Shown here piece after piece: positions 2,526-24,990 of a stretch of 24,990 nt of DNA. Position 1 is the first letter of the stretch; each line of letters starts with the position of its first letter. Origin of the DNA: Patescibacteria group bacterium (GTDB lineage Bacteria > Patescibacteriota > Minisyncoccia > JAHIHE01). The translations under genes and the position numbers were made by a program. The notes beneath the pieces were generated by a model. It searched no databases, was not told the origin of the DNA, and worked only from the letters and a program-made list of their open reading frames with translations. The DNA is taken from contig JAHIHE010000004.1 in NCBI GenBank assembly GCA_018899995.1, positions 1 to 24,990 on the forward strand. Reading direction: 5' to 3'.

Positions 2526-3848
2526 ATGCTTGACATAAAATTCATCAGAGAAAGCCAAAAAGAGCTTAAAAAAGCCATTAAAAACAAAGGCATTGATTTG
2601 GATTTGGATAAACTTTTGGCGGTGGACGATAAACGAGTCGGCCTTCTTCGGGAAATTGAGAAGCTGAATGCAGAGAAAAATAACATTAACAATTTAATCA
2701 GAAGTGCTAAAACCGAAAAAGAGCGAAAAAAAATTATAGAAGATGGTAGAAAAATTAAAAATAAAATTGAAACGATCGAACCGAAATTTAAGAAAATCCA
2801 GCAGGAATTTGACTTGTTGATGGCAAAAGTTCCGATTATTCCTTCGCCGGATACGCCGATTGGAAAAAACGAGGCGGACAACGCGGAAATTTATCGCTGG
2901 GGCGAAAAACCAAAACTTGCTTTCAGTCCCAAAGACCATATTGAATTGGGAAAACAGCTTGATATTTTGGATATGGAGCGCGGCAAAAAAGTCGCCGGCT
3001 ACCGCGGATATTATCTTAAAAACGAAGGCGCGCAACTGGTAATGGCGATGATGATGTACGCTTTCAATAAAATGGTCAAACGCGGCTACATCCCGATGAT
3101 TCCGCCGACGCTTGTAAAAGGATTCTCTCTTTTCGGAACGGGATATTTCAAAGGTCTAAAATACGACGACAAAGTTGACGAACTTTACCAGATAGCGGGT
3201 TCTGACAAAGAGGCCGGCGGAGCAATCAGTAAAGAAAAAAAATTTTTAGTGGGCACGGCAGAGCCGTCCTTGCTCGCTTATTACGCAGGAGAGGTTTTAA
3301 AAGAGGAAAACCTGCCGCTTAAAATTTCCGGATACAGCCAGTGCTACCGGAGCGAAATAGGAAGTTACGGAAAAGACACCAAGGGCATATACCGCGTGCA
3401 CGAATTTATGAAAATTGAACAGGTGATAATTTGCAAAGCGGACATCAAAGAAGCGGAAAAATTGCAGGAAGAAATGCTTGGAATTTCCAAAGAAATTTTG
3501 GAGGAACTGGGTTTGCTTTATCGTCAGATAATAATCTGCGCCGGAGATTTAAGCCCGGGGAAATACCGGCAGTACGATCTTGAAGTGTATTCGGCCGCGA
3601 ATGATTGGTATCGCGAATGCGGCTCGGCAAGCATTTTTTTGGATTGGCAGGCGCGCCGGCTTAATGTGAAATATGCCGATAAAGAAGGCAAGAAAAAATA
3701 TGTTTATATGCTCAATAACACCGGCTTGGCCTCGCCGCGGATTTTAATCGCAATTTTGGAAAATTACCAGCAGGCGGACGGCTCGGTGAAAATCCCGAAG
3801 GTTTTGCGGGAATATATGGGAAAGGATATAATAAGACCGAGAAAATAA
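2526..3848 (+). CDS. serS: Seryl-tRNA synthetase
   Basis: MLDIKFIRE start, N-terminal coiled coil, GTAEP, motif 2 YRSEIGSYGKDTKGIYRVHEFMKIEQ, DWQARRL, motif 3 NNTGLASPRILIAILENYQQADGSV. Confidence 0.97.
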   Translation: MLDIKFIRESQKELKKAIKNKGIDLDLDKLLAVDDKRVGLLREIEKLNAEKNNINNLIRSAKTEKERKKIIEDGRKIKNKIETIEPKFKKIQQEFDLLMAKVPIIPSPDTPIGKNEADNAEIYRWGEKPKLAFSPKDHIELGKQLDILDMERGKKVAGYRGYYLKNEGAQLVMAMMMYAFNKMVKRGYIPMIPPTLVKGFSLFGTGYFKGLKYDDKVDELYQIAGSDKEAGGAISKEKKFLVGTAEPSLLAYYAGEVLKEENLPLKISGYSQCYRSEIGSYGKDTKGIYRVHEFMKIEQVIICKADIKEAEKLQEEMLGISKEILEELGLLYRQIIICAGDLSPGKYRQYDLEVYSAANDWYRECGSASIFLDWQARRLNVKYADKEGKKKYVYMLNNTGLASPRILIAILENYQQADGSVKIPKVLREYMGKDIIRPRK

Positions 3849-3885: not shown

Positions 3886-4455
3886 ATGGAACAATTCGAA
3901 ACTTTTTTAAAAAATTACGGAAATGGTCTTTTCTGGATTCTAATACTGATAATTTTTGATGGATTATTCTTAAAGCGGCTGGTGAAGCGGCTAGTTAGGC
4001 TGATTATCAAATTTGATTATAGGAAAAGTGGCGCAAAAGAAAAACTGGAGGCGAAAATGAGAACGCTTGGCGGCGTAGTAGTCAATATGGGGAATATGTT
4101 GGTTTTATTTGCCATTATTTTGATTTTACTGCGGATATTCAAAGTTGACACGGGACCGGTTTTGGCAGGAGCCGGCATTATTGGATTGGTTATAGGATTT
4201 GGAACCCAATCGTTAATCAAGGACTTCGTGTCGGGACTTTTTATTTTAATAGAGAATCAATATAATGTCGGCGATCGGGTGAAAATCGGGACATTTGAGG
4301 GCGAGGTTAAAAAAATCACAATTCGTTCCACGATTTTAGAAGATAATGAAGGCAGGATTATCTACCTTCCCAATGGGACAATTACTACTGTCATAAATTA
4401 TTCGCAAGGAAAAACGGATCAGTCGGTCGTCCCCAAGCAGTTTCAATCAAAGTAG
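3886..4455 (+). CDS. Small-conductance mechanosensitive channel (MscS family, short form)
   Basis: LAGAGIIGLVIGFGTQSLIKDFVSGLFILIENQYNVGDRVKIG...GEVKKITIRSTIL...IYLPNG. Confidence 0.9.
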   Translation: MEQFETFLKNYGNGLFWILILIIFDGLFLKRLVKRLVRLIIKFDYRKSGAKEKLEAKMRTLGGVVVNMGNMLVLFAIILILLRIFKVDTGPVLAGAGIIGLVIGFGTQSLIKDFVSGLFILIENQYNVGDRVKIGTFEGEVKKITIRSTILEDNEGRIIYLPNGTITTVINYSQGKTDQSVVPKQFQSK

Positions 4456-4502: not shown

Positions 4503-5483
4503 ATGATTTGGTTTTATGTCCTAATTTTTATAATCTCTTGCGTTTTACTTTATTTTGCCGGAGAATTTTTAGTTAAAGGACTTACGCGAATAGCCAAGTT
4601 CTTAGGTTGGAAAGAATTCGTAGTCGCGTTTCTGCTAATAGCTTTTGCAAGCTCATTGCCAAATCTCTCGCTTGGAGTTTCCTCGGCTTTGCATGGAGTT
4701 CCTCAGCTTTCTTTCGGCGATGTTTTGGGAAACAATATGATAGCTATGACTTTGGCCGTAGGTTTGGCGGCTTTCTTTTCCAGAGACGGAATCACAGGCA
4801 ACAGTCAAACGATTCAAACAACAGCGGTTTTCGTTTTAGTCTCCGCGATTCTGCCTTTGCTTTTAGTGGCGGATGGAATCCTTTCAAGGATTGACGGCGT
4901 TTTACTCATCTCTTTTTTTGGTTGTTATCTTTATTGGCTTTTTTCAAAAAAAGAAAGATTTTCACGAGTTTACAACAATGAGCGCGATACTCAACTTCAT
5001 TTTGGGATTTCAAACTTCTTTAAAGACATAAGCAGAGTATTACTTGGAGTAATTTTTGTAATAATCGCGGCTGAGGGAATTGTAAGATCGTCTGCTTTTT
5101 TTGCCTCCACTTTTAATTTGCCGCTGGTTTTAATCGGAATTTTTGTTACCGGAGCGGGAAACGCTTTGCCGGAGATATATTTTAGCATAGTTTTAGCCAA
5201 AAGGGGGCACAATTGGATGATTTTAGGCGGATTGATGGGCGCCGTTATAATACCCGCTACTTTGGTTTTAGGAATAGTTTCTTTGATACATCCAATTGAA
5301 ATTGCCAATTTTTCATACGGAATTATCGCAAGATTATTTTTAATTATCGCGTCTTTGTTCTTCTTTTTCTCGGTGTTAACTGGCAAAAAAATCACGAGGA
5401 AAGAAGCTCTGGTTTTGTTGGGAATTTATATTGTTTTTATCTTAACTGAAATCGCCATGGGGATATATGAGAATATTAAATAG
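4503..5483 (+). CDS. Sodium/calcium exchanger family (CaCA, YrbG-like) antiporter
   Basis: Two alpha repeats (AFASSLPN...GDVLGNNM and GAGNALPE...GGLMGAVI) and about 10 hydrophobic segments. Alternative TTG start at 4494. Confidence 0.88.
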   Translation: MIWFYVLIFIISCVLLYFAGEFLVKGLTRIAKFLGWKEFVVAFLLIAFASSLPNLSLGVSSALHGVPQLSFGDVLGNNMIAMTLAVGLAAFFSRDGITGNSQTIQTTAVFVLVSAILPLLLVADGILSRIDGVLLISFFGCYLYWLFSKKERFSRVYNNERDTQLHFGISNFFKDISRVLLGVIFVIIAAEGIVRSSAFFASTFNLPLVLIGIFVTGAGNALPEIYFSIVLAKRGHNWMILGGLMGAVIIPATLVLGIVSLIHPIEIANFSYGIIARLFLIIASLFFFFSVLTGKKITRKEALVLLGIYIVFILTEIAMGIYENIK

Positions 5484-7068: not shown

Positions 7069-8613
7069 TTAATTTAAATTTTTGTCCTCGTAGTTCAACG
7101 GACAGAACACAAGCCTCCGGAGCTTGGGATGCAAGTTCGATTCTTGCCGAGGGCACCACGTAGGAAATTGCAAGGAGTTTTGGTTCGCCTCGCTTCGCTC
7201 GGCGACTAATTCGTATTCAATTTTGGGGGTAAAAACGAATTCACGATTTCGCAAAATATGGTTCGAGCCGATGTTTTTCAGAAATGTTGTCATTGCAGTC
7301 GGATTGGGAGAGGAAAGCAGATTAGCGGCTTGATTTAAGGATTTTACGAACTCACGAGCCGGTTCGAGCCAAGACAACCCTTTTGTCTCAAAGTCGGTGA
7401 TTTTTTCGGAAAGTGATATTTTTTGAGACAGCAAAGTTTGTTTTTTGGCGGCGTATTCTTCTGTGGATAAGGCGTCAGCGAGATAGATATCTAACAACTT
7501 TTGAAGTTTTGCCTCGACTTGCGCTAATTGTTCTTTCATAACACTAACCTCGCCTTGTGCGTCCTCTCTCGCTTTATCCTGCTCACTATCCAACGCCGCC
7601 AAAACCTTCTCGGTATCTTGGCTCGACAAAGAAACTTTTTGAAGGTAAGAAGTGATTTGCTCTGTTAGTGCTTCCTCTCGCAGATAATGCTTTTCTTGGC
7701 AAATACCTTTCTTTTTCGTGCAACGATAGTAGTTATGCCTTTTCTGACGCTCTCCGGTAATTGAACAACCACACGAGGCACACTTTAGTAATCCAAGAAA
7801 AGCAAAATGATGTTTTCTCACTTCTTGCACTTTTCCACGCTTCGCCATTATCTCTTGGCATTTATCAAAAAGTTTCTTTGAAATTAACGGCTCGTGTTTC
7901 CCCTCAAAAATTTCCCCTTTCCACTTCATCAAACCAAGATAGAAAATATTTTGTAGATTCTTTTGGATATTGGCGATGACAAGTGGTTTATTGAGATTTC
8001 CACGCAAACCATTTTCATTGCACCAATTTGCGAGAGAATGAAGCGTATGCCTTCCGGTGGCGTACAATTCAAACATTTTTCTAACTTCGGGAGATTTATC
8101 TGGGTCAATATCTATTCCACGAGTTTTTGGATTATTGATGTAGCCAACCGGAGCCCAGCCGGGCCATACGCCATTTCTGATTTTCTGTCGTAAACCTCGC
8201 TTCACATTCTCTCGCAAATTGTCTACAAAATATTTTGATTGGCCAAAAGCGATGTTGAGCATAAACAACCCTTGCGGTGTTGGCTCAAACCAGAAAGTGG
8301 GAAATTTGAGAGATTTAATCAAGCCGCGATCAACAAAGTGGATTATTTTTCCACCATCAACACTGTTCCTTGCCAATCTGTCCGGGTGCCACGAAATTAT
8401 TCCGTCCGCCTTGCCTTGTTCCAGAAATGACAACATTTCGGAGAACTTTGTTCGCCCAGGTTCTTTAGCAGTCTTTGCCTCACATAGCGAGGCGACAATT
8501 TCAAGTTTTTCTTTAGCGGCAAATTCTTTTAATTCAACAAGCTGGGCTTCAATACTTAAAACTTGCCTGTCATCTTTTTCTGTGCTCTTGCGAGTGTAGA
8601 TAATGTATTTCAT
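7069..8613 (-). CDS. Large serine recombinase (resolvase + recombinase + Zn-ribbon + coiled coil)
   Basis: Catalytic YTRKST, DRLARN, CASCG...YYRC zinc ribbon. The last ~30 codons (WCPRQESNL...) are the antisense of tRNA-Arg. Confidence 0.93.
   Translation of the reverse strand: MKYIIYTRKSTEKDDRQVLSIEAQLVELKEFAAKEKLEIVASLCEAKTAKEPGRTKFSEMLSFLEQGKADGIISWHPDRLARNSVDGGKIIHFVDRGLIKSLKFPTFWFEPTPQGLFMLNIAFGQSKYFVDNLRENVKRGLRQKIRNGVWPGWAPVGYINNPKTRGIDIDPDKSPEVRKMFELYATGRHTLHSLANWCNENGLRGNLNKPLVIANIQKNLQNIFYLGLMKWKGEIFEGKHEPLISKKLFDKCQEIMAKRGKVQEVRKHHFAFLGLLKCASCGCSITGERQKRHNYYRCTKKKGICQEKHYLREEALTEQITSYLQKVSLSSQDTEKVLAALDSEQDKAREDAQGEVSVMKEQLAQVEAKLQKLLDIYLADALSTEEYAAKKQTLLSQKISLSEKITDFETKGLSWLEPAREFVKSLNQAANLLSSPNPTAMTTFLKNIGSNHILRNREFVFTPKIEYELVAERSEANQNSLQFPTWCPRQESNLHPKLRRLVFCPLNYEDKNLN
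7084..7158 (+). tRNA. tRNA-Arg (anticodon CCG)
   Basis: Acceptor GTCCTCG/CGAGGGC, D-arm GTTC/GAAC, anticodon stem CAAGC/GCTTG with loop CTCCGGA (CCG at 7117-7119), T-arm GCAAG-TTCGATT-CTTGC, encoded ACCA. Confidence 0.95.
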
Positions 8614-13481: not shown

Positions 13482-13934
13482 ATGTCTAAAGTTAATCCCA
13501 TGGCATTAGACTCAAAATCCAAGATGAAATATTTGGATTTGTTATGGACATCAATTGCGCAGTTGGAAACCAGAGACGAAGTCAAGCAATTTTTTAAGGA
13601 TCTTTTAAGCGAAAGCGAGGCGATAATGCTGGCGCGGCGGATTGAGGTTGCCAAGCGTTTACTGGAAGGTGAATCTTACGATGGTATTGCGGGGGAATTA
13701 AGGGTTGGCAAAGATACGATCGGACGGGTGCAGGGATGGCTTACTTCAGGTTTTGGCGGGTATGAAAAAGCAATTAGCGGCTTTAAAAAAGAATTGGATC
13801 GCCGCTTTGGCAAGTCAATGGTAGTTGATAAAAAAGAACCATATAGCTTCGGCTGGATTAAACAAAAATATCCCTTGCAATTTTTATTGTTTAATTTACT
13901 TTCCGGCGATAAAGATTCAAAGAATAAAAAATAG
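13482..13934 (+). CDS. TrpR-like (YerC/YecD family) DNA-binding protein
   Basis: FFKDLLSESEAIMLARRIEVAKRLLEGESYDGIAGELRVGKDTIGRV. Confidence 0.85.
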   Translation: MSKVNPMALDSKSKMKYLDLLWTSIAQLETRDEVKQFFKDLLSESEAIMLARRIEVAKRLLEGESYDGIAGELRVGKDTIGRVQGWLTSGFGGYEKAISGFKKELDRRFGKSMVVDKKEPYSFGWIKQKYPLQFLLFNLLSGDKDSKNKK

Positions 13935-14460: not shown

Positions 14461-15297
14461 ATGAAAATCAAAGAAATTAAAGTAAAATCAATTATTGTAA
14501 AATCAAATCTACCCGAGGGGGATTTTGTCATAAACCCATATATCGGATGCCAGCACGGATGTAAATATTGCTATGCGAGATTTATGAAAAGATTTACAGG
14601 CCATACGGAACCTTGGGGCTTTTTTGTTGATGTAAAAATCAACGCTTCCGATTTAATCCCGGAAGATACAAATAAATACAAAGATAAATCCATAGTAATT
14701 AGTTCCGTTACTGATCCTTATCAGCCAATTGAAAGAAAATACAAGCTCACAAGAAAAATTCTTGAAAGACTTATACCTCTCCAGCCGCATTTGAGTTTGA
14801 TGACTAAATCAGATTTAGTAATTAGAGATGTTGATTTATTTAAACAATTTAAAGATTGTCTTGTTGCGTTTTCTTTATCGGTTTTAGATGATAAAACAAG
14901 AAAAGAAATAGAACCATTATCATCTTCTGTAGATAAAAGAATAAATGCTCTAAAAAATCTTCATAAAGCTAATATCCCAACAGCCCTTTTTATTTCACCA
15001 ATCTTTCCAGAAATAACCGATTGGAAAAAAATAATCAACAAAACAAAATCTTTTGTAGGTGAATATTGGTTTGAAAACCTAAACCTTTATTCGTCTATCA
15101 AAAACGGGATTTATAGATTTTTAAGGGAAAATAAACCTGAACTTGTGGAGAAATATAAAAAAATCTATTCAAAAGATAGCAATTATTGGAATATTGAAGA
15201 AAATAACATAAACGAATTCTGTAAAAAGAATAAACTTAATTGCAGAATTTATTTTCATCATAAAACCAACCATGTTCAGCAACCCCTTAAAAATTAA
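14461..15297 (+). CDS. Radical SAM protein, SplB/DNA-repair photolyase-like
   Basis: NPYIGCQHGCKYCYA (CxxxCxxC), SSVTDPYQPIE, MTKSDLVIRD. ATG 14461 chosen over the upstream TTG. Confidence 0.85.
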   Translation: MKIKEIKVKSIIVKSNLPEGDFVINPYIGCQHGCKYCYARFMKRFTGHTEPWGFFVDVKINASDLIPEDTNKYKDKSIVISSVTDPYQPIERKYKLTRKILERLIPLQPHLSLMTKSDLVIRDVDLFKQFKDCLVAFSLSVLDDKTRKEIEPLSSSVDKRINALKNLHKANIPTALFISPIFPEITDWKKIINKTKSFVGEYWFENLNLYSSIKNGIYRFLRENKPELVEKYKKIYSKDSNYWNIEENNINEFCKKNKLNCRIYFHHKTNHVQQPLKN

Positions 15298-19288: not shown

Positions 19289-20056
19289 ATGAATCTTGAA
19301 TACGCAAAATGCTTAATGGAAAAAACCAAGCGGGACTATGACGAAATTGCCGAGGAATTTTCCGCTACTCGAAAAACAATGTGGCCCGAACTTGCTGATT
19401 TAGACAAATATGTGAAAGCGGGCGATAAAGTTTTGGATATCGGATGCGGCAACGGCCGGCTTTTTGGTTATCTCTTGGAAAGAGTTAAAAACTTTTCCTA
19501 TGTCGGAATTGATGTTTCGGAAAAACTGATAGATATTGCCAAAGGTTTTACTTGGAGGTTGATCCTCCAAGAGGATGCCCAACCTCCAAGCGTTGATTTT
19601 AAAGTTTTTAACGGAATTAATATTCCGTATCCGACTAACAGTTTTGACGCAGTATTTTGTCTGGCGACTTTGCCGCATTTGCCATGCGAAGAACTGCGCC
19701 TTAAATTCCTGCAAAACATCAAAAAAGCGGTTAAGCCCGGCGGTTTGCTGATTATAACTTGCTGGAATCTTTGGCAATTTAAGTTTATATCAAATCAGAT
19801 TAAAATGATAGCCAATTTTATCACAGATAAGATTTCGGGCAAGGGCCGATACGGTTGGGGCGATTTTTACATTCCTTGGCGCAAGCGCGACGGGAAAATA
19901 ATCCACCGATATTACCATTCATTCACGCAAAAGGAGCTTAGCTCCTTATTGAAAAAATCCGGCTGGGAAATAAAGGAATTGGGTTACAAAAAGCGACATA
20001 ACGCGAAAAATTTTAATCTTTTCGCGGTGGCTTGCCCCGTATCAATTCTTAAATAA
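19289..20056 (+). CDS. Class I SAM-dependent methyltransferase
   Basis: VLDIGCGNGRL motif I, YVGIDVS, FDAVFCLATLPHL, VKPGGLLIITCW. Confidence 0.9.
   Translation: MNLEYAKCLMEKTKRDYDEIAEEFSATRKTMWPELADLDKYVKAGDKVLDIGCGNGRLFGYLLERVKNFSYVGIDVSEKLIDIAKGFTWRLILQEDAQPPSVDFKVFNGINIPYPTNSFDAVFCLATLPHLPCEELRLKFLQNIKKAVKPGGLLIITCWNLWQFKFISNQIKMIANFITDKISGKGRYGWGDFYIPWRKRDGKIIHRYYHSFTQKELSSLLKKSGWEIKELGYKKRHNAKNFNLFAVACPVSILK
19551..19590. repeat. Nested palindrome inside the methyltransferase ORF
   Basis: CTTGGAGGTTG / CAACCTCCAAG (11-bp perfect stem) enclosing ATCCTC-CAA-GAGGAT. Confidence 0.8.
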
Positions 20057-20262
20057 ATCTTGCCTATAGGTATTAAAAATAGCCGATAGGCGATACCGAG
20101 GGAGATAATTTTTTATTAAATAATCTTGTTTCGGAATTTGATATGGGGCGGGAAAGCCGGTGGTGGCGAGAAAGTCGTAATAAATTTGTAAAATTAACAG
20201 GCCAGAGATCGCCTTTAAACCCTTTAAAATAAAGGTTTTTTGCGTTTTTGGGGCAAGGGGGC

Positions 20263-20290
20263 GTGACAGATTCTGTGAATATGCTATACT
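20263..20290 (+). promoter_or_regulatory. Putative sigma70 promoter reading into the structured repeat array
   Basis: GTGACA 20263-20268, 16-bp spacer, extended -10 TG-C-TATACT (20282-20290). Confidence 0.45.
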
Positions 20291-20388
20291 GGGGAGTTCT
20301 GAAAATGAGAAAGTAAATGCAGTTGGCGATAAGCACAATTATAAAAAGAGAGGAAAGAATGTCCAGCCACGTTCATTCTTTCCCTCTT

Positions 20389-20461
20389 AATTCTCCAAGT
20401 TTATCTTAATTAAAAAGGTAATCTTAGAAAAGCTTTTAAGAAAAAATCTTGAAGGCCTAAA
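20389..20461 (+). repeat. Structured two-hairpin repeat, copy 1
   Basis: AATTCTCCAAG...TTAGAAAA-GCTTTTAAGA/TCTTGAAGGC-CTAAA. Confidence 0.85.
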
Positions 20462-20642
20462 TTGCACATTGAAAAATATAAAAAACCACCCCCATTCATT
20501 TTTATTTTTTCCTTGTCGGGTTTTGGCGCAAAGAGGCTAAAAAAGTTTTGGCCTTCCCGCGCCGAGACTCGACTGGATTTTTTCAGTTTTTTAGTTGAGT
20601 TCTTGGCGAAACTGATTGTAAAAAAAATTGGAGGGAAAAAAT

Positions 20643-21038
20643 ATGAAAAATATCAGAAAAAGGTTTGAAAGACTGATAAGAATTTGCACCAATAATGTCG
20701 GCTGCAAATTCAGCCAGGAATATACAAGACTGGCTATGCAGTCTGAAGAAAACTTCAAGGTAGCTCTTGAAGTAAAAGAAGAGTGGAACAAGTGTCACAG
20801 GATAGACTTCAGGCTTCCAGATACGGAATGTATGAAATACGTCCTGGGATACACGTCTTCCTGGATAGCGAAGGAAGATGTTAAATTCCTTCGAATTGAA
20901 AAAAGGTGTGCACCCGATTGGGGGACGTATGAAGGCGGCGAGTATGAAGTCGCCGTCTATGAAGTAAACGGGGAAGAAAAAATGGCCACCGATTGGGACC
21001 CCGAAACTATGAGACCACTCCCGATGGGGTGCTCATAA
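20643..21038 (+). CDS. Hypothetical protein (cargo between repeats 1 and 2)
   Basis: GGAGG SD at 20630-20634 before ATG 20643; no recognisable motif. Confidence 0.7.
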   Translation: MKNIRKRFERLIRICTNNVGCKFSQEYTRLAMQSEENFKVALEVKEEWNKCHRIDFRLPDTECMKYVLGYTSSWIAKEDVKFLRIEKRCAPDWGTYEGGEYEVAVYEVNGEEKMATDWDPETMRPLPMGCS

Positions 21039-21107
21039 AAAGTAAAAAGGTTGTCTGGCAAGCACTTGCCGGGCATGGGAAAGTACCTTAAATCTAAAAT
21101 CTTTCCC

Positions 21108-21179
21108 AATTTTTCCAAGTTTATCTTAAATGAAAGGTAAATTTAGAAAAGCTTTTAAGAAAAAACTTGAAAGCCTCAA
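21108..21179 (+). repeat. Structured two-hairpin repeat, copy 2
   Basis: AATTTTTCCAAGTTTATCTT...AAGGTAAATTTAGAAAA-GCTTTTAAG/CTTGAAAGC-CTCAA. Confidence 0.85.
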
Positions 21180-21345
21180 GTCTTCAAATCGCGGAAACGC
21201 GAAGAGAAGCATGCACATTGATAAAAAGGAAAGGTTATTAAAGGGTTTATCTTCGGGGTAATTTTGGTCGCTAATTTTAACGGCCAGAATTACCCTGAAG
21301 ATCGCCAAAAGTTTTGGTTGAATTGGAGGGGATGGAGGAAAAGAT

Positions 21346-22014
21346 ATGAAACACATAATAATTTCAGACAAATGGCAGTTTGGAACAGACCCGTTCCCGG
21401 CGTACAGGTGTAGTCTGGTTTATGGCCGGAATCAGAGAGACCGCGAGTTTCTGCCAACAAACGGAATTACTCCAACCGAGTTTGCCGTTTTTAAAAGCGG
21501 CCATGAGAAACAGGGTCCCGAATACAAGGGTACACTTGACGGAGCCCGGAAGGTGGCCGATGAATGGAATAAGGATCATCCGAAAGGGACATATGCTCAG
21601 GCGTATGTAACACACCATGGTGTTTTGCCCGAGAATAAATTTTGTGTCATCAAGACACAAGAAAAAGGCACCATTCTTGCAGTGTCCGGAGAAGACAAGA
21701 CAAATAGATGCCTGCTGTTTGTCGGATGCGCTGGTGGATTCCGTGGTGGAGTATCTGTCTTAACAGACGGAACCACAGGAACAATCCTAATCAAATGTTC
21801 CGCAGGCAACGCCTGCGAAAGTAGTGTTGAGGCCATTGCGATACTCGCGATTGGCCAGTCAATTGCGTTCCATACCAGCGGACGCCGAACCAATGAGGTA
21901 TACCAATACCTCTGGAACGGAAAAGAAGTGGAAAAGAAGCACTACTCCAAAGCCGAATGGGACAGTCGTTCTGTGGCAATAGCGCCACAAACTGCAAAGG
22001 CAGAAGTTCTTTAA
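21346..22014 (+). CDS. Hypothetical protein (cargo)
   Basis: 222 aa; GGAGG SD upstream; visibly more GC-rich than the flanks. Confidence 0.8.
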   Translation: MKHIIISDKWQFGTDPFPAYRCSLVYGRNQRDREFLPTNGITPTEFAVFKSGHEKQGPEYKGTLDGARKVADEWNKDHPKGTYAQAYVTHHGVLPENKFCVIKTQEKGTILAVSGEDKTNRCLLFVGCAGGFRGGVSVLTDGTTGTILIKCSAGNACESSVEAIAILAIGQSIAFHTSGRRTNEVYQYLWNGKEVEKKHYSKAEWDSRSVAIAPQTAKAEVL

Positions 22015-22146
22015 AAAAGAACTTCTAAATAAATTTTTAACCTTTCCTTTTTTCCTTCGAATTCATTTTGAATGCAAAGTGGATTCAAAGGAGGAAATTT
22101 GTTCTTTTCAAAAAAATAATAGCAGGGAGAAAATTGATTGCTTTTC

Positions 22147-22234
22147 TGTCAGAGGCGTAAAGCGCCGAATGACCTTTCACGAATGCGAGGGGTCGCACAT
22201 TCGTGCGGGATTCTTCGCTTCGCTCAGAATGACA
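22147..22234. repeat. CGTC-type REP pair (TGTCA...TGACA)
   Basis: Right half GGATTCTTCGCTTCGCTCAGAATGAC; central CACGAATG/CATTCGTG hairpin. Confidence 0.7.
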
Positions 22235-22315
22235 ATTATAAAAAACGGTCAGTTTTATCCCTGCTATAAAGAAAATTAGAAAAGAAACGCGGGGAGAAGG
22301 AATAAGTGATTAGAA

Positions 22316-23173
22316 ATGGTAGAATACAGATTTTTACAGTTGGACCCGCGGTCCAAAGAACAGACGGAAATCTTTATGGGGATTGAGGTTACAATCCCGA
22401 ATGTGGAAATAACATCGGGAATAAATCTCGATCATCACGGGAAAGATGATACAGCCGAAACCCCAGCGGCTTGCGAGCAGGCGCTTCAGGCGGAGTTACC
22501 GCCAGAAGACGCAACGATAGCCACGGTCCGAACCGACCAGGACAGTATTACCGCAATGGCGGTAATAGCTAACCGGGCGATCGGGCGAAAAGTGGACGAA
22601 TTAGTCGTCAGGGCAGTCGGTCTTATGGACCGGTATGGTCCCAAGGTTGAAGAGCAGCTCCGCCATGATTTGGTGGTAGCGATAGCCCGGAAGGCGGCGG
22701 ATTTCAAGGTTCCGCTTGACCAGCGAGTGGCTTTTGTCCAAGCTTGCTTGGATGGAACCTATAATCCCGAGGAAATTGCTTTACTTGTTGAAGCGCGGAA
22801 TCGAGAGTTTGAGGGGTCCCGGAAGGCAAGTCAGGTCAAAACGGCCGCCGGTGGCAGAATTGCGGTAGTTGTGTCAACGCACCGTTTTGCAACTAATCTG
22901 GGCTACGAAGTAGCGCCAGTAGTGGTTGCAACGAATCCGTCTATGCCGGTGATTGGCGAAAGTGGAAAGCCCGTAGGAGAAACCTATCTCAAGCACACAG
23001 TTTGCAGATGGGATTCAAATGTTCCGGTTGATCTTGAAGGAGCTTTGAAAGAGTTTCAAAGCATTGAACCGGGCTGGGGCGGCAGAGGCGATATCTTCGG
23101 CTCGCCACAAGGCGTGTCGTCAAAGCTTACCACCGAACAAGTGGTAGGAATGGTGGAGAAATATCTCCACTAA
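22316..23173 (+). CDS. Hypothetical protein with DHH-like phosphoesterase motifs
   Basis: NLDHHG, DQDS and C-terminal GWGGRGDIFGSP; family assignment uncertain. Confidence 0.55.
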   Translation: MVEYRFLQLDPRSKEQTEIFMGIEVTIPNVEITSGINLDHHGKDDTAETPAACEQALQAELPPEDATIATVRTDQDSITAMAVIANRAIGRKVDELVVRAVGLMDRYGPKVEEQLRHDLVVAIARKAADFKVPLDQRVAFVQACLDGTYNPEEIALLVEARNREFEGSRKASQVKTAAGGRIAVVVSTHRFATNLGYEVAPVVVATNPSMPVIGESGKPVGETYLKHTVCRWDSNVPVDLEGALKEFQSIEPGWGGRGDIFGSPQGVSSKLTTEQVVGMVEKYLH

Positions 23174-23288
23174 AGAGAAAGGACGGACTTAATCCATCCA
23201 AAAGCACTTTTGGAGCAGAAAGATAAAATGAAATGAAGGAAGTTTTGCGAAAGCGAAATTTCCCGATTATCTTGTTTTTCTGCTCCTC

Positions 23289-23359
23289 AATTTTTCTAAG
23301 TTCGTAAAATTTTTTGCGGATTTAGAAAAGCTCTCAAGAAAAAAGCTTGAAAGCCTAAA
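23289..23359 (+). repeat. Structured two-hairpin repeat, copy 3
   Basis: AATTTTTCTAAGTTCGTAAAA...TTTTGCGGATTTAGAAAA-GCTCTCAAG/CTTGAAAGC-CTAAA. Confidence 0.85.
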
Positions 23360-23377
23360 AATGTTCTTTTTAAAATA

Positions 23378-23800
23378 TTATTTTTTGAAGCGATTCAGAA
23401 ATTGCCGCGGAGTAAGAACTGGAATATTTTGAAAAGATTTTAGTTTCAGCAGATGTTTGTCGCCTGAGATAATAAAATCAGCTTCGGAATTTAGGGCGCA
23501 ATCCAAGATTATATTATCCGATGGATCATCTTTGATAATTTTTAATGGTTTTTCTGATGAGGAAAAAATTAAACAATCATTTATAATTGCTTTGATTATT
23601 TTTTCTGCCGTTAAGTTAATTTTTAGCAGAGGAATAGCAAATTTTGGATAATTTAAAACGCGAGTTATTTCTTGGATTATTTGAAGATTGATAGATACTG
23701 TAATTTGATTTTTCCGGAATAAAGCATAAAGAGATTCTAATTCTTTGTTTCGCCAAATAAGCATTGAAATAAAAATATTTGTGTCAAAAACAACCCTCAT
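23378..23800 (-). CDS. PIN-domain toxin (COG1569-like)
   Basis: MRVVFDTNIFIS, DDPSDNIILDCAL, DFIISGDKHLL. Start moved to ATG 23800. Confidence 0.9.
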   Translation of the reverse strand: MRVVFDTNIFISMLIWRNKELESLYALFRKNQITVSINLQIIQEITRVLNYPKFAIPLLKINLTAEKIIKAIINDCLIFSSSEKPLKIIKDDPSDNIILDCALNSEADFIISGDKHLLKLKSFQNIPVLTPRQFLNRFKK

Positions 23801-23804
23801 AAAA

Positions 23805-24026
23805 TTATTTAGGCTTATTTCGCGCCCAACAAATAGCATCTCGAATATCTTTTTTGGAAATCAATTTTCCAAGCTTAAGAAGATCGGGGCGTAAATTTTT
23901 TAATGAAGGTTCTTGAATTTTTTTAACGATAATAGTATCTTTTGATTCTCTAATAATCACTTTTTTCCCTATCCATTCTTTTGGTAAAACAATGCTTTGT
24001 CCAGTAAATTTAGTTTGATAATTCAT
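23805..24026 (-). CDS. Putative antitoxin (AbrB-like swapped-hairpin N-terminus)
   Basis: 73 aa immediately upstream of the PIN gene; IVLPKEWIGKKVII. Confidence 0.7.
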   Translation of the reverse strand: MNYQTKFTGQSIVLPKEWIGKKVIIRESKDTIIVKKIQEPSLKNLRPDLLKLGKLISKKDIRDAICWARNKPK

Positions 24027-24054
24027 AAATTTTTAATTATTTTCTTATAAATTT

Positions 24055-24082
24055 ATTATACTCTCTTAAAATCCAGTGTCAA
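24055..24082 (-). promoter_or_regulatory. Consensus promoter of the first TA pair
   Basis: Minus strand TTGACA (24082-24077), 16 bp, TATAAT (24060-24055). The -35 box overlaps the left edge of repeat copy 4. Confidence 0.75.
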
Positions 24083-24151
24083 TTTTCCAAGCTTATAAAC
24101 TCGTTGTAAGTTTAGAAAAGCCCCTGAATTAAAAAGATTCGGAGGCCTAAA
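24081..24151 (+). repeat. Structured two-hairpin repeat, copy 4
   Basis: AATTTTCCAAGCTTATAA...TTGTAAGTTTAGAAAA-GCCCCTGAAT/ATTCGGAGGC-CTAAA. Confidence 0.85.
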
Positions 24152-24253
24152 GTCCTCAATTCATTAGAAATAATGATAAGAGGCAAGCACATTTATAAAG
24201 GAAAGAGGGTTTTTCTCAAAAAAGAGAATCAGCCACGCCCTCTTTCCCCTCCT

Positions 24254-24413
24254 AATTTTTTCCAAGTTTGTCTTTAAATGTCATGCTGAATTTATTTCAG
24301 CATCTATAAAAGATTCTGAAACAAGTTCAGGATGACAACAAGAAAGGTAAATTTAGAAAAGCCCCCAAATAACTTATGAATTATAACAAATAACTCATAA
24401 CGAAATTGGAGGC
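24254..24413 (+). repeat. Structured two-hairpin repeat, copy 5 (both loops expanded)
   Basis: AATTTTTTCCAAGTTTGTCTTT...[59-bp REP]...AAAGGTAAATTTAGAAAA-GCCCCCAA...TTGGAGGC. Confidence 0.8.
24279..24337. repeat. CGTC-type REP pair inserted in repeat copy 5
   Basis: TGTCATGCTGAATTTATTTCAGCATCT...AGATTCTGAAACAAGTTCAGGATGACA. Confidence 0.8.
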
Positions 24414-24492
24414 GAGATCGCAAAAGGCTCCACACGGAGTATGGAGCCAACGGTAATATAATAAATGTTCTTTATAAAACAAATCACAAAAC

Positions 24493-24864
24493 TCAAATTG
24501 ATTTAACGGAGATCTCTTTAATTTTCTGAAAATGTTTTAAATTGCGAGTGGCTAGAACGCAATCAAGATAATAGCAGGTGGAAGCGATTAAAGCGTCAGC
24601 GATATTTGTCCGATATTTTTTATAGAAATCAGCCGCTTTTCCAGCGACCTGCGAAGTAATATTGATTGAAGGAAAAATAGACAGAAGCCGTTTTATTTCT
24701 ATACTTTCTTTTTTGGAAAACTTTCCGCACAGAACTTCATACTCAGTGATCACAGAAATAAAAGCGGAAAGCTTTCCTTTCTCAATTTCCTCTAAAAACA
24801 GCCCTGCTTTCGCATCGCCTCGCAAGTGATCAATTAAAATATTCGTATCAACAAGATAGCGCAT
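24493..24864 (-). CDS. VapC-like PIN-domain toxin
   Basis: MRYLVDTNILID, SVITEYEV, ADALIASTC, LATRNLKHF. Confidence 0.9.
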   Translation of the reverse strand: MRYLVDTNILIDHLRGDAKAGLFLEEIEKGKLSAFISVITEYEVLCGKFSKKESIEIKRLLSIFPSINITSQVAGKAADFYKKYRTNIADALIASTCYYLDCVLATRNLKHFQKIKEISVKSI

Positions 24865-24868
24865 AATA

Positions 24869-24990
24869 TTATTTTATTCTTTTAAATCTTTCTTTCCACC
24901 CTTTCCTCAATGAATTTTCAAAACTGATTCCTTTTAAAAATTTCTTGCCTAAAATTCCGCTAGTTTCTCCGATAATTGAAATATCTTCAG
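24869..24990 (-). CDS. Putative antitoxin, 3' part only (5' end outside window)
   Basis: Open frame ...GILGKKFLKGISFENSLRKGWKERFKRIK-stop ending 4 bp before the PIN start. Confidence 0.6.
   Translation of the reverse strand, partial: EDISIIGETSGILGKKFLKGISFENSLRKGWKERFKRIK

Follow-up and report, generated by a model that had tools for sequence, protein, structure and literature searches.

A two-hairpin element that bounds cassettes in polar accessory-gene arrays of a patescibacterial order, and is probably also a structured RNA

What is the repeat that separates a row of small accessory genes on contig JAHIHE010000004.1, which belongs to a candidate phyla radiation (CPR) genome of 1.02 Mb in 164 contigs and was analysed over its entire length of 24,990 bp (the window)? 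Bacteria of the CPR, or Patescibacteria, have tiny genomes with few recognisable mobile elements, and their acquisition of accessory and defence genes is poorly understood. An initial annotation had proposed either a non-canonical cassette system or a structured RNA. We found a covarying structure and polar cassettes, in keeping with that proposal, but neither a link to a recombinase nor recent movement. The repeat is a two-hairpin element of ~72 nt that forms the boundary of accessory-gene units in a one-directional row, and it probably combines the roles of structured RNA and cassette boundary and is not an analogue of the integron recombination site attC; this view follows from its covariation, its delimitation of cassettes, the absence of a linked recombinase and its RNA-type folding.

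The five copies first reported are all present at the positions given, and both covariance models and direct reading confirm that they lie on a single strand (+). Model R1, built from three copies, finds the other copies in the window at E values of 1e-10 to 1e-18, and its search of the own genome yields eight further places. The copies in the window are as follows.

20388-20463, + strand: repeat copy 1, with hairpin 1 and hairpin 2 (R1, 61 bits, E 3e-10; fold)
21108-21181, + strand: repeat copy 2 (R1, 85.8 bits, E 9e-16)
~22102-22286, + strand: tentative degenerate copy in the gap between the second and third open reading frames (ORFs), with outer stem TTCTTTTC/GAAAAGAA and with TTAGAAAAGA, and without hairpin 2
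23289-23361, + strand: repeat copy 3 (R1, 92.4 bits)
24080-24153, + strand: repeat copy 4 (R1, 83.3 bits)
~24255-24418, + strand: repeat copy 5 (broader model R2, 34.7 bits on the identical sequence L048:12910-13073; fold)

The reported size of ~70 nt does not hold for copy 5, which measures ~160 nt because both its loops hold palindromic insertions; it has the same base and is found with the broader model R2 only. The exact sequence TTAGAAAAGC occurs five times in the window, confined to the array and to the + strand. Two ORFs had been placed side by side in one interval between copies; both exist, but they are parted by the degenerate copy, which has a large structured insertion, a one-mismatch core at 22276, a fold z score of -7.05 and a weak R1 match nearby. 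An additional copy lies past the window end, 3' of the second gene pair (L048:13806-13988, on a 31-kb contig of the same species). With these two copies, each gene unit is bracketed.

The copies have in common the frame AATTTT(C/T)(C/T)AAG-stem-TTAGAAAA-GC-stem-GC, in agreement with the first description. The pairing of the first stem is likewise real, but the stem had been drawn too short: the conserved flanks TTTTCCAAG and yTTAGAAAA also pair and extend the hairpin to ~17 bp. Hairpin 1 has a conserved base (TTTTTCCAAG/TTTAGAAAA) and a variable top; in its stem of 17-20 bp a C·A mismatch recurs and a G·U pair is conserved, and its loop takes insertions of 10-200 nt. Hairpin 2 has a stem of 9-10 bp with GC at both beginning and end. 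The covariance model spans 21 base pairs, and the compensatory changes listed in the initial annotation are genuine and extend to 85 distinct copies from ~20 genomes. Standard pairs make up 93.7% of the 1712 pair cells in this alignment, compared with 81.5% in shuffles; the alignment was fitted to the model, which favours structure, and the margin is large. Changes on both sides were found at 15 of the 21 pairs (288 cells), and none of 500 shuffles reached the covariation score, which is strong support for a conserved fold. When one partner was slid by a single column, pairing fell to 60-65%, and all slid controls scored far lower; an earlier alignment of 49 copies gave similar covariation results. 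The intergenic folds have z scores of -7 and -10. No Rfam family matches the element: at the gathering threshold a search of the whole window returned tRNA-Arg alone, and at E values up to 10 it returned nothing credible in 20000-24990.

Two recurrent palindromic insertions, TCCTTCG...CTCAGGATGACAA and ...GTTTATAAAGT...GTAAAG...TTTATAAAG..., were seen in loops of hairpin 1 and are common to several genera. Loop palindromes of this kind lie in the window at 24278-24340 and 22190-22245, in L042 at 2941-3034, 4627-4721 and 3614-3735, and in L039 at 14967-15096 and 13709-13821. Sequencing depth at 22204-22242 of the window is far above its surroundings in groundwater runs, so this repeat is also present in other organisms.

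The alignment also tells which strand folds. Among the non-Watson-Crick cells, 178 are G·U or U·G and 48 are A·C or C·A; it is therefore the array-sense strand that folds. Spacer hairpins capped by GAAA number 13 in sense and one in antisense orientation, with 3-4 for the other A3G loops. Together with the G·U-rich leader hairpin described below, the G·U pairs and GAAA loops indicate sense-strand, RNA-type folding, and strand-specific G·U pairs and GAAA loops fit an RNA better than a DNA recombination site.

Within the order, 22 of 32 genomes have the element, or 19 of 26 when only those of good quality are counted, and at E <= 1e-4 it is present in none of ~146 genomes sampled from the rest of the class; the family is order-specific. 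A loose pattern scan over 596 Gb was of little use as a guide to its spread, as nearly all of its 117 matches were chance occurrences in unrelated taxa; the remaining hosts were metagenome-assembled genomes of Paceibacterota, Parcubacteria or Patescibacteria. Copies do not exceed ~10 per genome and are clustered in arrays, each with 3 to 9 sites at intervals of 0.2-5 kb (for example on G016 contig 6, G024 contig 31, G026 contig 27, G023 contig 50 and G018 contig 64), and solo copies also exist. At all 20 loci with two or more copies, every copy lies on the same strand. The gene on the 5' side is co-oriented with the element in 56 of 75 cases, with a median of ~75 nt from gene end to element, and the exceptions are mostly overlapping small gene pairs (PIN, HEPN/nucleotidyltransferase) in inverted orientation. 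The orientation of the element thus tracks the array and not the neighbouring gene. That the repeat separates cassettes, as had been suggested for this one locus, is borne out by polar arrays delimited by it in many related genomes.

The cassettes of the window carry the following genes.

20643-21038, + strand: cassette 1 ORF, 131 aa as called, an orphan with no family match
21346-22014, + strand: cassette 2 ORF, 222 aa, an orphan; a 31%-identical relative adjoins the repeat in G011
22316-23173, + strand: cassette 3 ORF, 285 aa, an orphan; a 32%-identical relative is a cassette of the G024 array
23378-24026, - strand: inverted toxin-antitoxin (TA) cassette 1, with a PIN_3 toxin (23378-23839) and its antitoxin (23805-24026)
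24493-24990, - strand: inverted TA cassette 2, with a VapC/PIN toxin (24493-24864) and an antitoxin that extends past the window

Single genes follow the array strand, and the TA pairs, of which two were rightly reported between copies, are inverted. A 45-52%-identical relative of TA cassette 1 occupies the same array position in G026, and a ~90-nt module 5' of copy 3 (23200-23288) recurs on contig C161 and in G026 behind unrelated ORFs.

Hairpins 1 and 2 are accompanied by further recurring parts. Most copies are preceded by a hairpin 0, rich in purines in its 5' arm (GGAG...) and in pyrimidines in its 3' arm (...CTCC), with a different sequence at each copy; it ends just 5' of the T-run that opens hairpin 1 and is seen in nearly every forward cassette. 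Hairpin 0 and the T-run resemble a terminator, but a consensus scan makes no terminator call; as hairpin 0 is not a canonical terminator, read-through is plausible. Hairpin 2 is often followed, usually at a distance of 6-15 nt, by an A-rich box (TGCACATTGAAAAA), the D-module, whose consensus TG(C/T)(A/T)C(A/T)TTGAAAAA matches TTTTTCCAAG imperfectly and in inverted orientation. Of 75 copies of the element, 33 have a D-module within 110 nt on the downstream side and three on the upstream side, against a background of ~0.017 per 110 nt. In some cases a ribosome-binding site comes immediately after the D-module; in others a leader of ~100 nt separates it from the start codon, in forward cassettes that are unrelated to one another. 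The leader was found in seven copies in three genera (beyond that of the window, L042 3497-3614, 5040-5170, 6746-6851 and 7364-7483, and L039 14862-14968 and 18535-18635); copies inside one array are 88-95% identical, their core has a consensus fold of a 25-bp hairpin with 5-7 G·U pairs, and the leader has no match in Rfam. In the window these parts, and the promoters considered below, are placed as follows.

20263-20290, + strand: head promoter (GTGACA, 16 nt, TATACT; TG before the -10 box; 10/12 match, extended -10), pointing into the array
20331-20348, + strand: head D-module (AAGCACAATTATAAAAAG), by direct reading, with no hairpin 1 or 2 before it
20350-20386, + strand: hairpin 0 of copy 1, by direct reading, not called by a simple terminator scan
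20462-20477, + strand: D-module after copy 1 (TTGCACATTGAAAAAT), by direct reading and enrichment
20515-20573, + strand: hairpin in the leader of cassette 1, ~25 bp, several of them G·U, core of the leader 20482-20588
21211-21227, + strand: D-module after copy 2, with a GAAA-capped hairpin (21189-21204) between hairpin 2 and it
24055-24082, - strand: promoter of TA cassette 1 (TTGACA, 16 nt, TATAAT; 12/12), its -35 box overlapping the start of copy 4
24154-24253, + strand: the 'empty' unit, with a GAAA-capped hairpin, a D-module (24185-24199) and hairpin 0, and no ORF
24426-24448, - strand: hairpin 3 (GGCTCCA..TGGAGCC, then TTTTG), intrinsic terminator of inverted TA cassette 2, with a D-module next to it at ~24463-24479

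The empty unit is indeed a unit lacking an ORF, but the length of ~170 bp ascribed to it is the distance from start to start (173 nt), and ~100 nt lie between the copies. Hairpin 3 with its D-module also opens unrelated inverted TA cassettes in other genomes.

The expectation that gene-content differences between related genomes would map to the repeat was borne out in several comparisons. The arrays of G016 and G026 have a common head flank (a divergent TrmB-type regulator, a giant protein and the promoter region), those of G016, G018 and G017 a common tail flank (a convergent trypsin-like protease), and the four arrays have almost no cassettes in common. Between the window and G026, which belongs to a different family, the order TA cassette 1, module, empty unit, module, TA cassette 2 is conserved, with a homologue of the empty unit at the same array position, and G026 has one extra module-bounded cassette of 52 aa. 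TA cassette 2 (window 24410-24990; L042 3895-4479, - strand) is 90.6% identical in DNA and 94% in protein between the two, and the homology starts at 24410, where hairpin 2 ends on its 3' side, takes in the following hairpin 1 and stops in the 5' arm of the hairpin 2 after that. Such identity across two families points to recent horizontal transfer, to judge by sequence comparison. In G022, one orphan gene with a D-module and hairpins 0, 1 and 2 stands between core genes that are adjacent in G025 and G014. In G010, a TA cassette lies right after hairpin 2; it is absent from the congener G008, the same cassette follows a module in G026, and the insertion in G010 has no second module. The window locus in G002, of the same family, has no array 3' of the methyltransferase gene. 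On G024 contig 31 (L041 ~1955-1985), a complete module is immediately preceded by an isolated 5' half of hairpin 1 (TTTTTTCCAAGTTCGCAAATATTC), which resembles a scar left by imprecise recombination.

Ten same-species contigs from several assemblies and samples carry exactly the same cassettes in an exact-protein look-up, and there is no sign of recent cassette movement within the species. Short assembled unitigs of four groundwater runs break at the repeats, and their joints stem from other members of the family. In metagenomes, more distant relatives of the TA2 toxin have no element at their flanks, save for weak matches on one contig.

Promoters are distributed unevenly along the arrays. The head-type promoter of the window also heads the arrays in G026 and G016 and a mini-array on contig C61 of the own genome, where it is followed by a D-module, and it is kept at the same locus, 3' of the methyltransferase gene, in G003, which has no array there. 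A promoter scan found no consensus promoter for the forward cassettes. The inverted TA cassettes have perfect TTGACA-16/17-TATAAT promoters whose -35 boxes overlap the first bases of the next hairpin 1, and the junction at this boundary, gtc followed directly by AATT, is also found in G026 and G023.

Array-head promoters recur in the form TTGACAG, N17, TGcTA[GT]ACT, and promoters of this type lie at 20263-20290 of the window, L048 13965-13995, L042 8212-8245 (- strand), L039 ~19584 (- strand) and L279 ~4420-4450. In the own species a copy is also found 3' of the last repeat, where it is ~90% identical to the head copy of G026 and abuts the remnant of an IS630-type (DDE_3) transposase. A near-consensus promoter on the minus strand (20338-20365; TGGACA, 16 nt, TATAAT) is embedded in the head D-module and hairpin 0 and faces the head promoter and an uncalled frame of 87 aa (20073-20336). 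In G026 the head promoter is predicted to transcribe ~200 nt up to a terminator, possibly yielding a small RNA.

The structure, its strand, the polarity of the arrays, the spread across the order and the gene-content changes at modules are established by these data. The element stands at the downstream end of each unit in a polar accessory-gene array, and our preferred reading, held tentatively and a little short of an even call, is that it is the RNA punctuation of a promoter-headed accessory-gene array whose modules are also the sites of cassette recombination. We infer transcription, processing and the route of recombination in this reading. The element would act in the sense-strand transcript between cassettes: hairpins 1 and 2 would serve either as a stable 3' end or as a signal for processing, by a double-strand RNase for instance, and the A-rich D-module and leader hairpin would start the next message, such that each cassette would be insulated and expressed on a platform starting at a strong promoter. 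The modules would be the places at which cassettes are gained, lost and swapped, because the same module flanks every cassette, and exchange might proceed by general recombination between modules after DNA uptake, rather than by an integron integrase. Modules plus leaders are 92-95% identical inside one array and thus offer homology for recombination.

The closest published analogue is, on present comparison, the promoter-early stem-loop (PeSL) cassettes of T4-type phages, in whose hyperplastic regions short regulatory stem-loop modules flank unrelated orphan genes without a dedicated recombinase (PMC2839356, PMC4122927). As with PeSLs, it is at the modules that related genomes differ by inserted, deleted or replaced orphan genes, and exchange as proposed here would resemble theirs. 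Unlike PeSLs, the arrays reside in a CPR cellular chromosome and not in a phage, no consistent strong promoter was recognisable inside the module, and the module comprises two covarying hairpins with conserved stem sequence. Hairpins that process or protect messages offer a second comparison. Intercistronic hairpins processed by RNase III are found in the early region of phage T7, and repetitive extragenic palindromic (REP) sequences and bacterial interspersed mosaic elements (BIMEs) form hairpins that stabilise 3' ends in enterobacterial operons. Those hairpins define message ends and protect the upstream message, and like them the element is a repeated long hairpin with internal mismatches that lies between cistrons in sense orientation; the predicted sense-strand hairpin of 17-20 bp, with its C·A mismatch and G·U pair, is similar to an RNase III-type site, a hairpin that spans about two helical turns and is internally distorted. 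It differs from them in having no sequence relation, in following inverted cassettes as well, and in being tied to a variable accessory array.

Several observations weigh against this reading and need to be interpreted alongside it. Folded single-stranded DNA also tolerates G·T pairs, and a conserved stem base beneath a variable top resembles the architecture of attC sites. The head promoter of G026 meets a strong terminator before the first cassette, and one array-long transcript is therefore not assured. The module also follows inverted TA cassettes, where it ends no sense message. The conserved blocks common to all modules are only 10-12 nt long, which is insufficient for RecA-type exchange where modules are dissimilar. 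No factor that would read the conserved TTTTTCCAAG/TTTAGAAAA stem in trans was identified.

Among the alternatives, the one that survives best is that hairpin 1, alone or together with hairpin 2, acts as a folded-DNA recombination site analogous to attC whose enzyme is encoded elsewhere (for example an Xer-type enzyme, a short tyrosine recombinase or an unrecognised protein); we regard it as unlikely, yet deserving of full discussion. The likeness to sedentary chromosomal integrons and to clusters of attC sites lacking integron-integrases (CALINs) comprises several features: a polar array of mostly single-gene orphan cassettes, each with one folded imperfect palindrome; at least two sites on one strand, close together and delimiting cassettes; inverted TA cassettes with their own promoters; a head promoter; and locus content that differs between relatives. 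Moreover, the conserved base, variable inner stem, expandable loop and recurrent C·A mismatch of hairpin 1 are attC-like, each cassette has one site at its array-3' end irrespective of the direction of its genes, with perfect polarity, and a promoter with a partial site (the D-module) stands at the head. The 90%-identical TA cassette common to two families, whose homology ends at hairpins, and the cassette indels at the site in G022 and G010 would also be accounted for.

A canonical integron is excluded, as the initial annotation had argued. The attC cores R'' (RYYYAAC) and R' (GTTRRRY) are absent: the conserved flanks read YTTTTCCAAG and ATTTAGAAAA, and in 60 of the 85 copies a G·T pair occupies the place of AAC/GTT. 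The element is neither an integron attC site nor a member of a known RNA family. It further differs from integrons in having a second hairpin and an A-rich box in the unit, a long conserved leader in many cassettes, folding of the sense (top) strand and no sign of recent movement within the species. A literature search on integrons in Patescibacteria and the CPR found no paper describing such arrays.

The recombinases of these genomes give the attC-like alternative little help. IntI is a tyrosine recombinase with a specific extra domain, and an array-side integrase is not required for a CALIN. No integron integrase was found in the window, as first stated, or in any genome searched. The own genome's matches to TIGR02249 score 94 and 75 bits against a cut-off of 265 and skip model positions 180-237, the IntI-specific segment. 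A PF00589 search gave no match on any array contig in G016, G024, G026 and G023, of which one is 98 kb long. The idea of a cassette system with a recombinase near the array found no support in the genomes of the order, in which the arrays have no linked recombinase and none follows the occurrence of the repeat. Neither of the two families that might have tracked it does so. A second, short class of tyrosine recombinases (~244-278 aa) occurs, usually near contig ends, in six genomes, three of which lack the repeat, and may belong to another mobile element (G000 C67:19283-19811, at the contig end; G003 C69; G025 C11; G013 C26; G017 C89). IS200-type Y1 transposase-like genes occur in 25 of the 32 genomes, in up to six copies, and a genome search found none in the own genome or its congener; 18 genomes have both Y1 and repeat, four the repeat alone, seven Y1 alone and three neither. 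The identical array on ten same-species contigs, the G010 insertion without a second site, the half-site scar in G024, and the GAAA loops and G·U-rich hairpins of the same spacers, which suggest RNA, also argue against a folded-DNA site.

Three individual candidates were rejected. A weak Y1 match beside the G023 array was not reproduced by genome search, in a family independent of the repeat; the divergent gene upstream of the G026 and G016 arrays is a TrmB-type regulator; and the large serine recombinase of the window (7069-8613, - strand) is 12 kb away, beside a tRNA-Arg gene, with no counterpart near other arrays. This last protein has Resolvase, Recombinase and Zn-ribbon domains, the 3' end of its gene overlaps tRNA-Arg(CCG) (7084-7158, + strand), and the protein probably is the integrase of a tRNA-inserted element.

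A related proposition unites both functions: this one order of Paceibacteria-type, ultra-small bacteria may have its own gene-capture platform, equivalent in function to the integron, with a different folded site (the TTTTTCCAAG/TTTAGAAAA hairpin and the second hairpin) that doubles as RNA punctuation and a non-IntI recombinase encoded off the array. Across the order there is one Xer-like tyrosine recombinase per genome, and the off-array enzyme would possibly be this only Xer-type enzyme of the cell. We consider this proposition, too, rather improbable.

A simpler composite was also considered, in which a terminator plus promoter is copied with each gene and hairpins 1 and 2 have no role of their own: hairpin 0 and the T-run would end the upstream gene, and the 3' arm of hairpin 2 (as -35 box) and the D-module (as -10 box) would start the next. 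The T-run-ending hairpin before most copies fits this scheme, as does TTGAAG/TTGAAA, 16-18 nt, AAAAAT/TAAAAT at a fixed offset in a subset of copies. However, hairpin 0, which has long loops and a spacer before the T-run, is not called as a terminator, the putative promoter is weak, and TTGAAG, 16-18 nt, AAAAAT is the best-scoring site at the fixed offset in only ~5 of 76 copies; a promoter scan of these 76 copies found no consistent strong promoter inside the repeat. A role for the D-module as either box was rejected, because most copies lack a partner hexamer at the right spacing and the D-module also stands 3' of real promoters and directly 5' of ribosome-binding sites. The scheme also leaves the covariation of hairpins 1 and 2 unexplained, and we judge it quite improbable.

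Finally, that the element is a selfish non-autonomous repeat (a miniature inverted-repeat transposable element, or of REP/REPIN type) in a permissive accessory region, with no role in cassettes, is very unlikely: its short conserved inverted arms form a hairpin in intergenic DNA as in REP/REPIN-RAYT systems, its unit is bounded by inverted motif copies (TTTTTCCAAG at the start, CATTGAAAAA in the D-module), solo copies and small palindromes inserted into loops occur, and Y1 genes are common in the order, but its copies are few, clustered and strictly co-oriented, differ by compensatory changes instead of being near-identical and show no target duplication in the G022 and G010 insertions, and Y1 does not track the repeat, as the four repeat-bearing genomes without Y1 and the seven repeat-free genomes with it attest.

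Returning to the preferred reading of an RNA punctuation at cassette boundaries, the covariance model provides a searchable marker for a variable gene platform in two thirds of the order's genomes, found at conserved chromosomal loci that differ in content from genus to genus. Acting as RNA, the element would represent a new, order-wide class of inter-cistronic signal and imply a protein that reads it; if it acts as DNA, it would represent an integron-like system with a new site and a new enzyme. Many groundwater samples hold the source organism, and cassette exchange in uncultured bacteria thereby becomes directly testable with metatranscriptomes and long reads from such samples.

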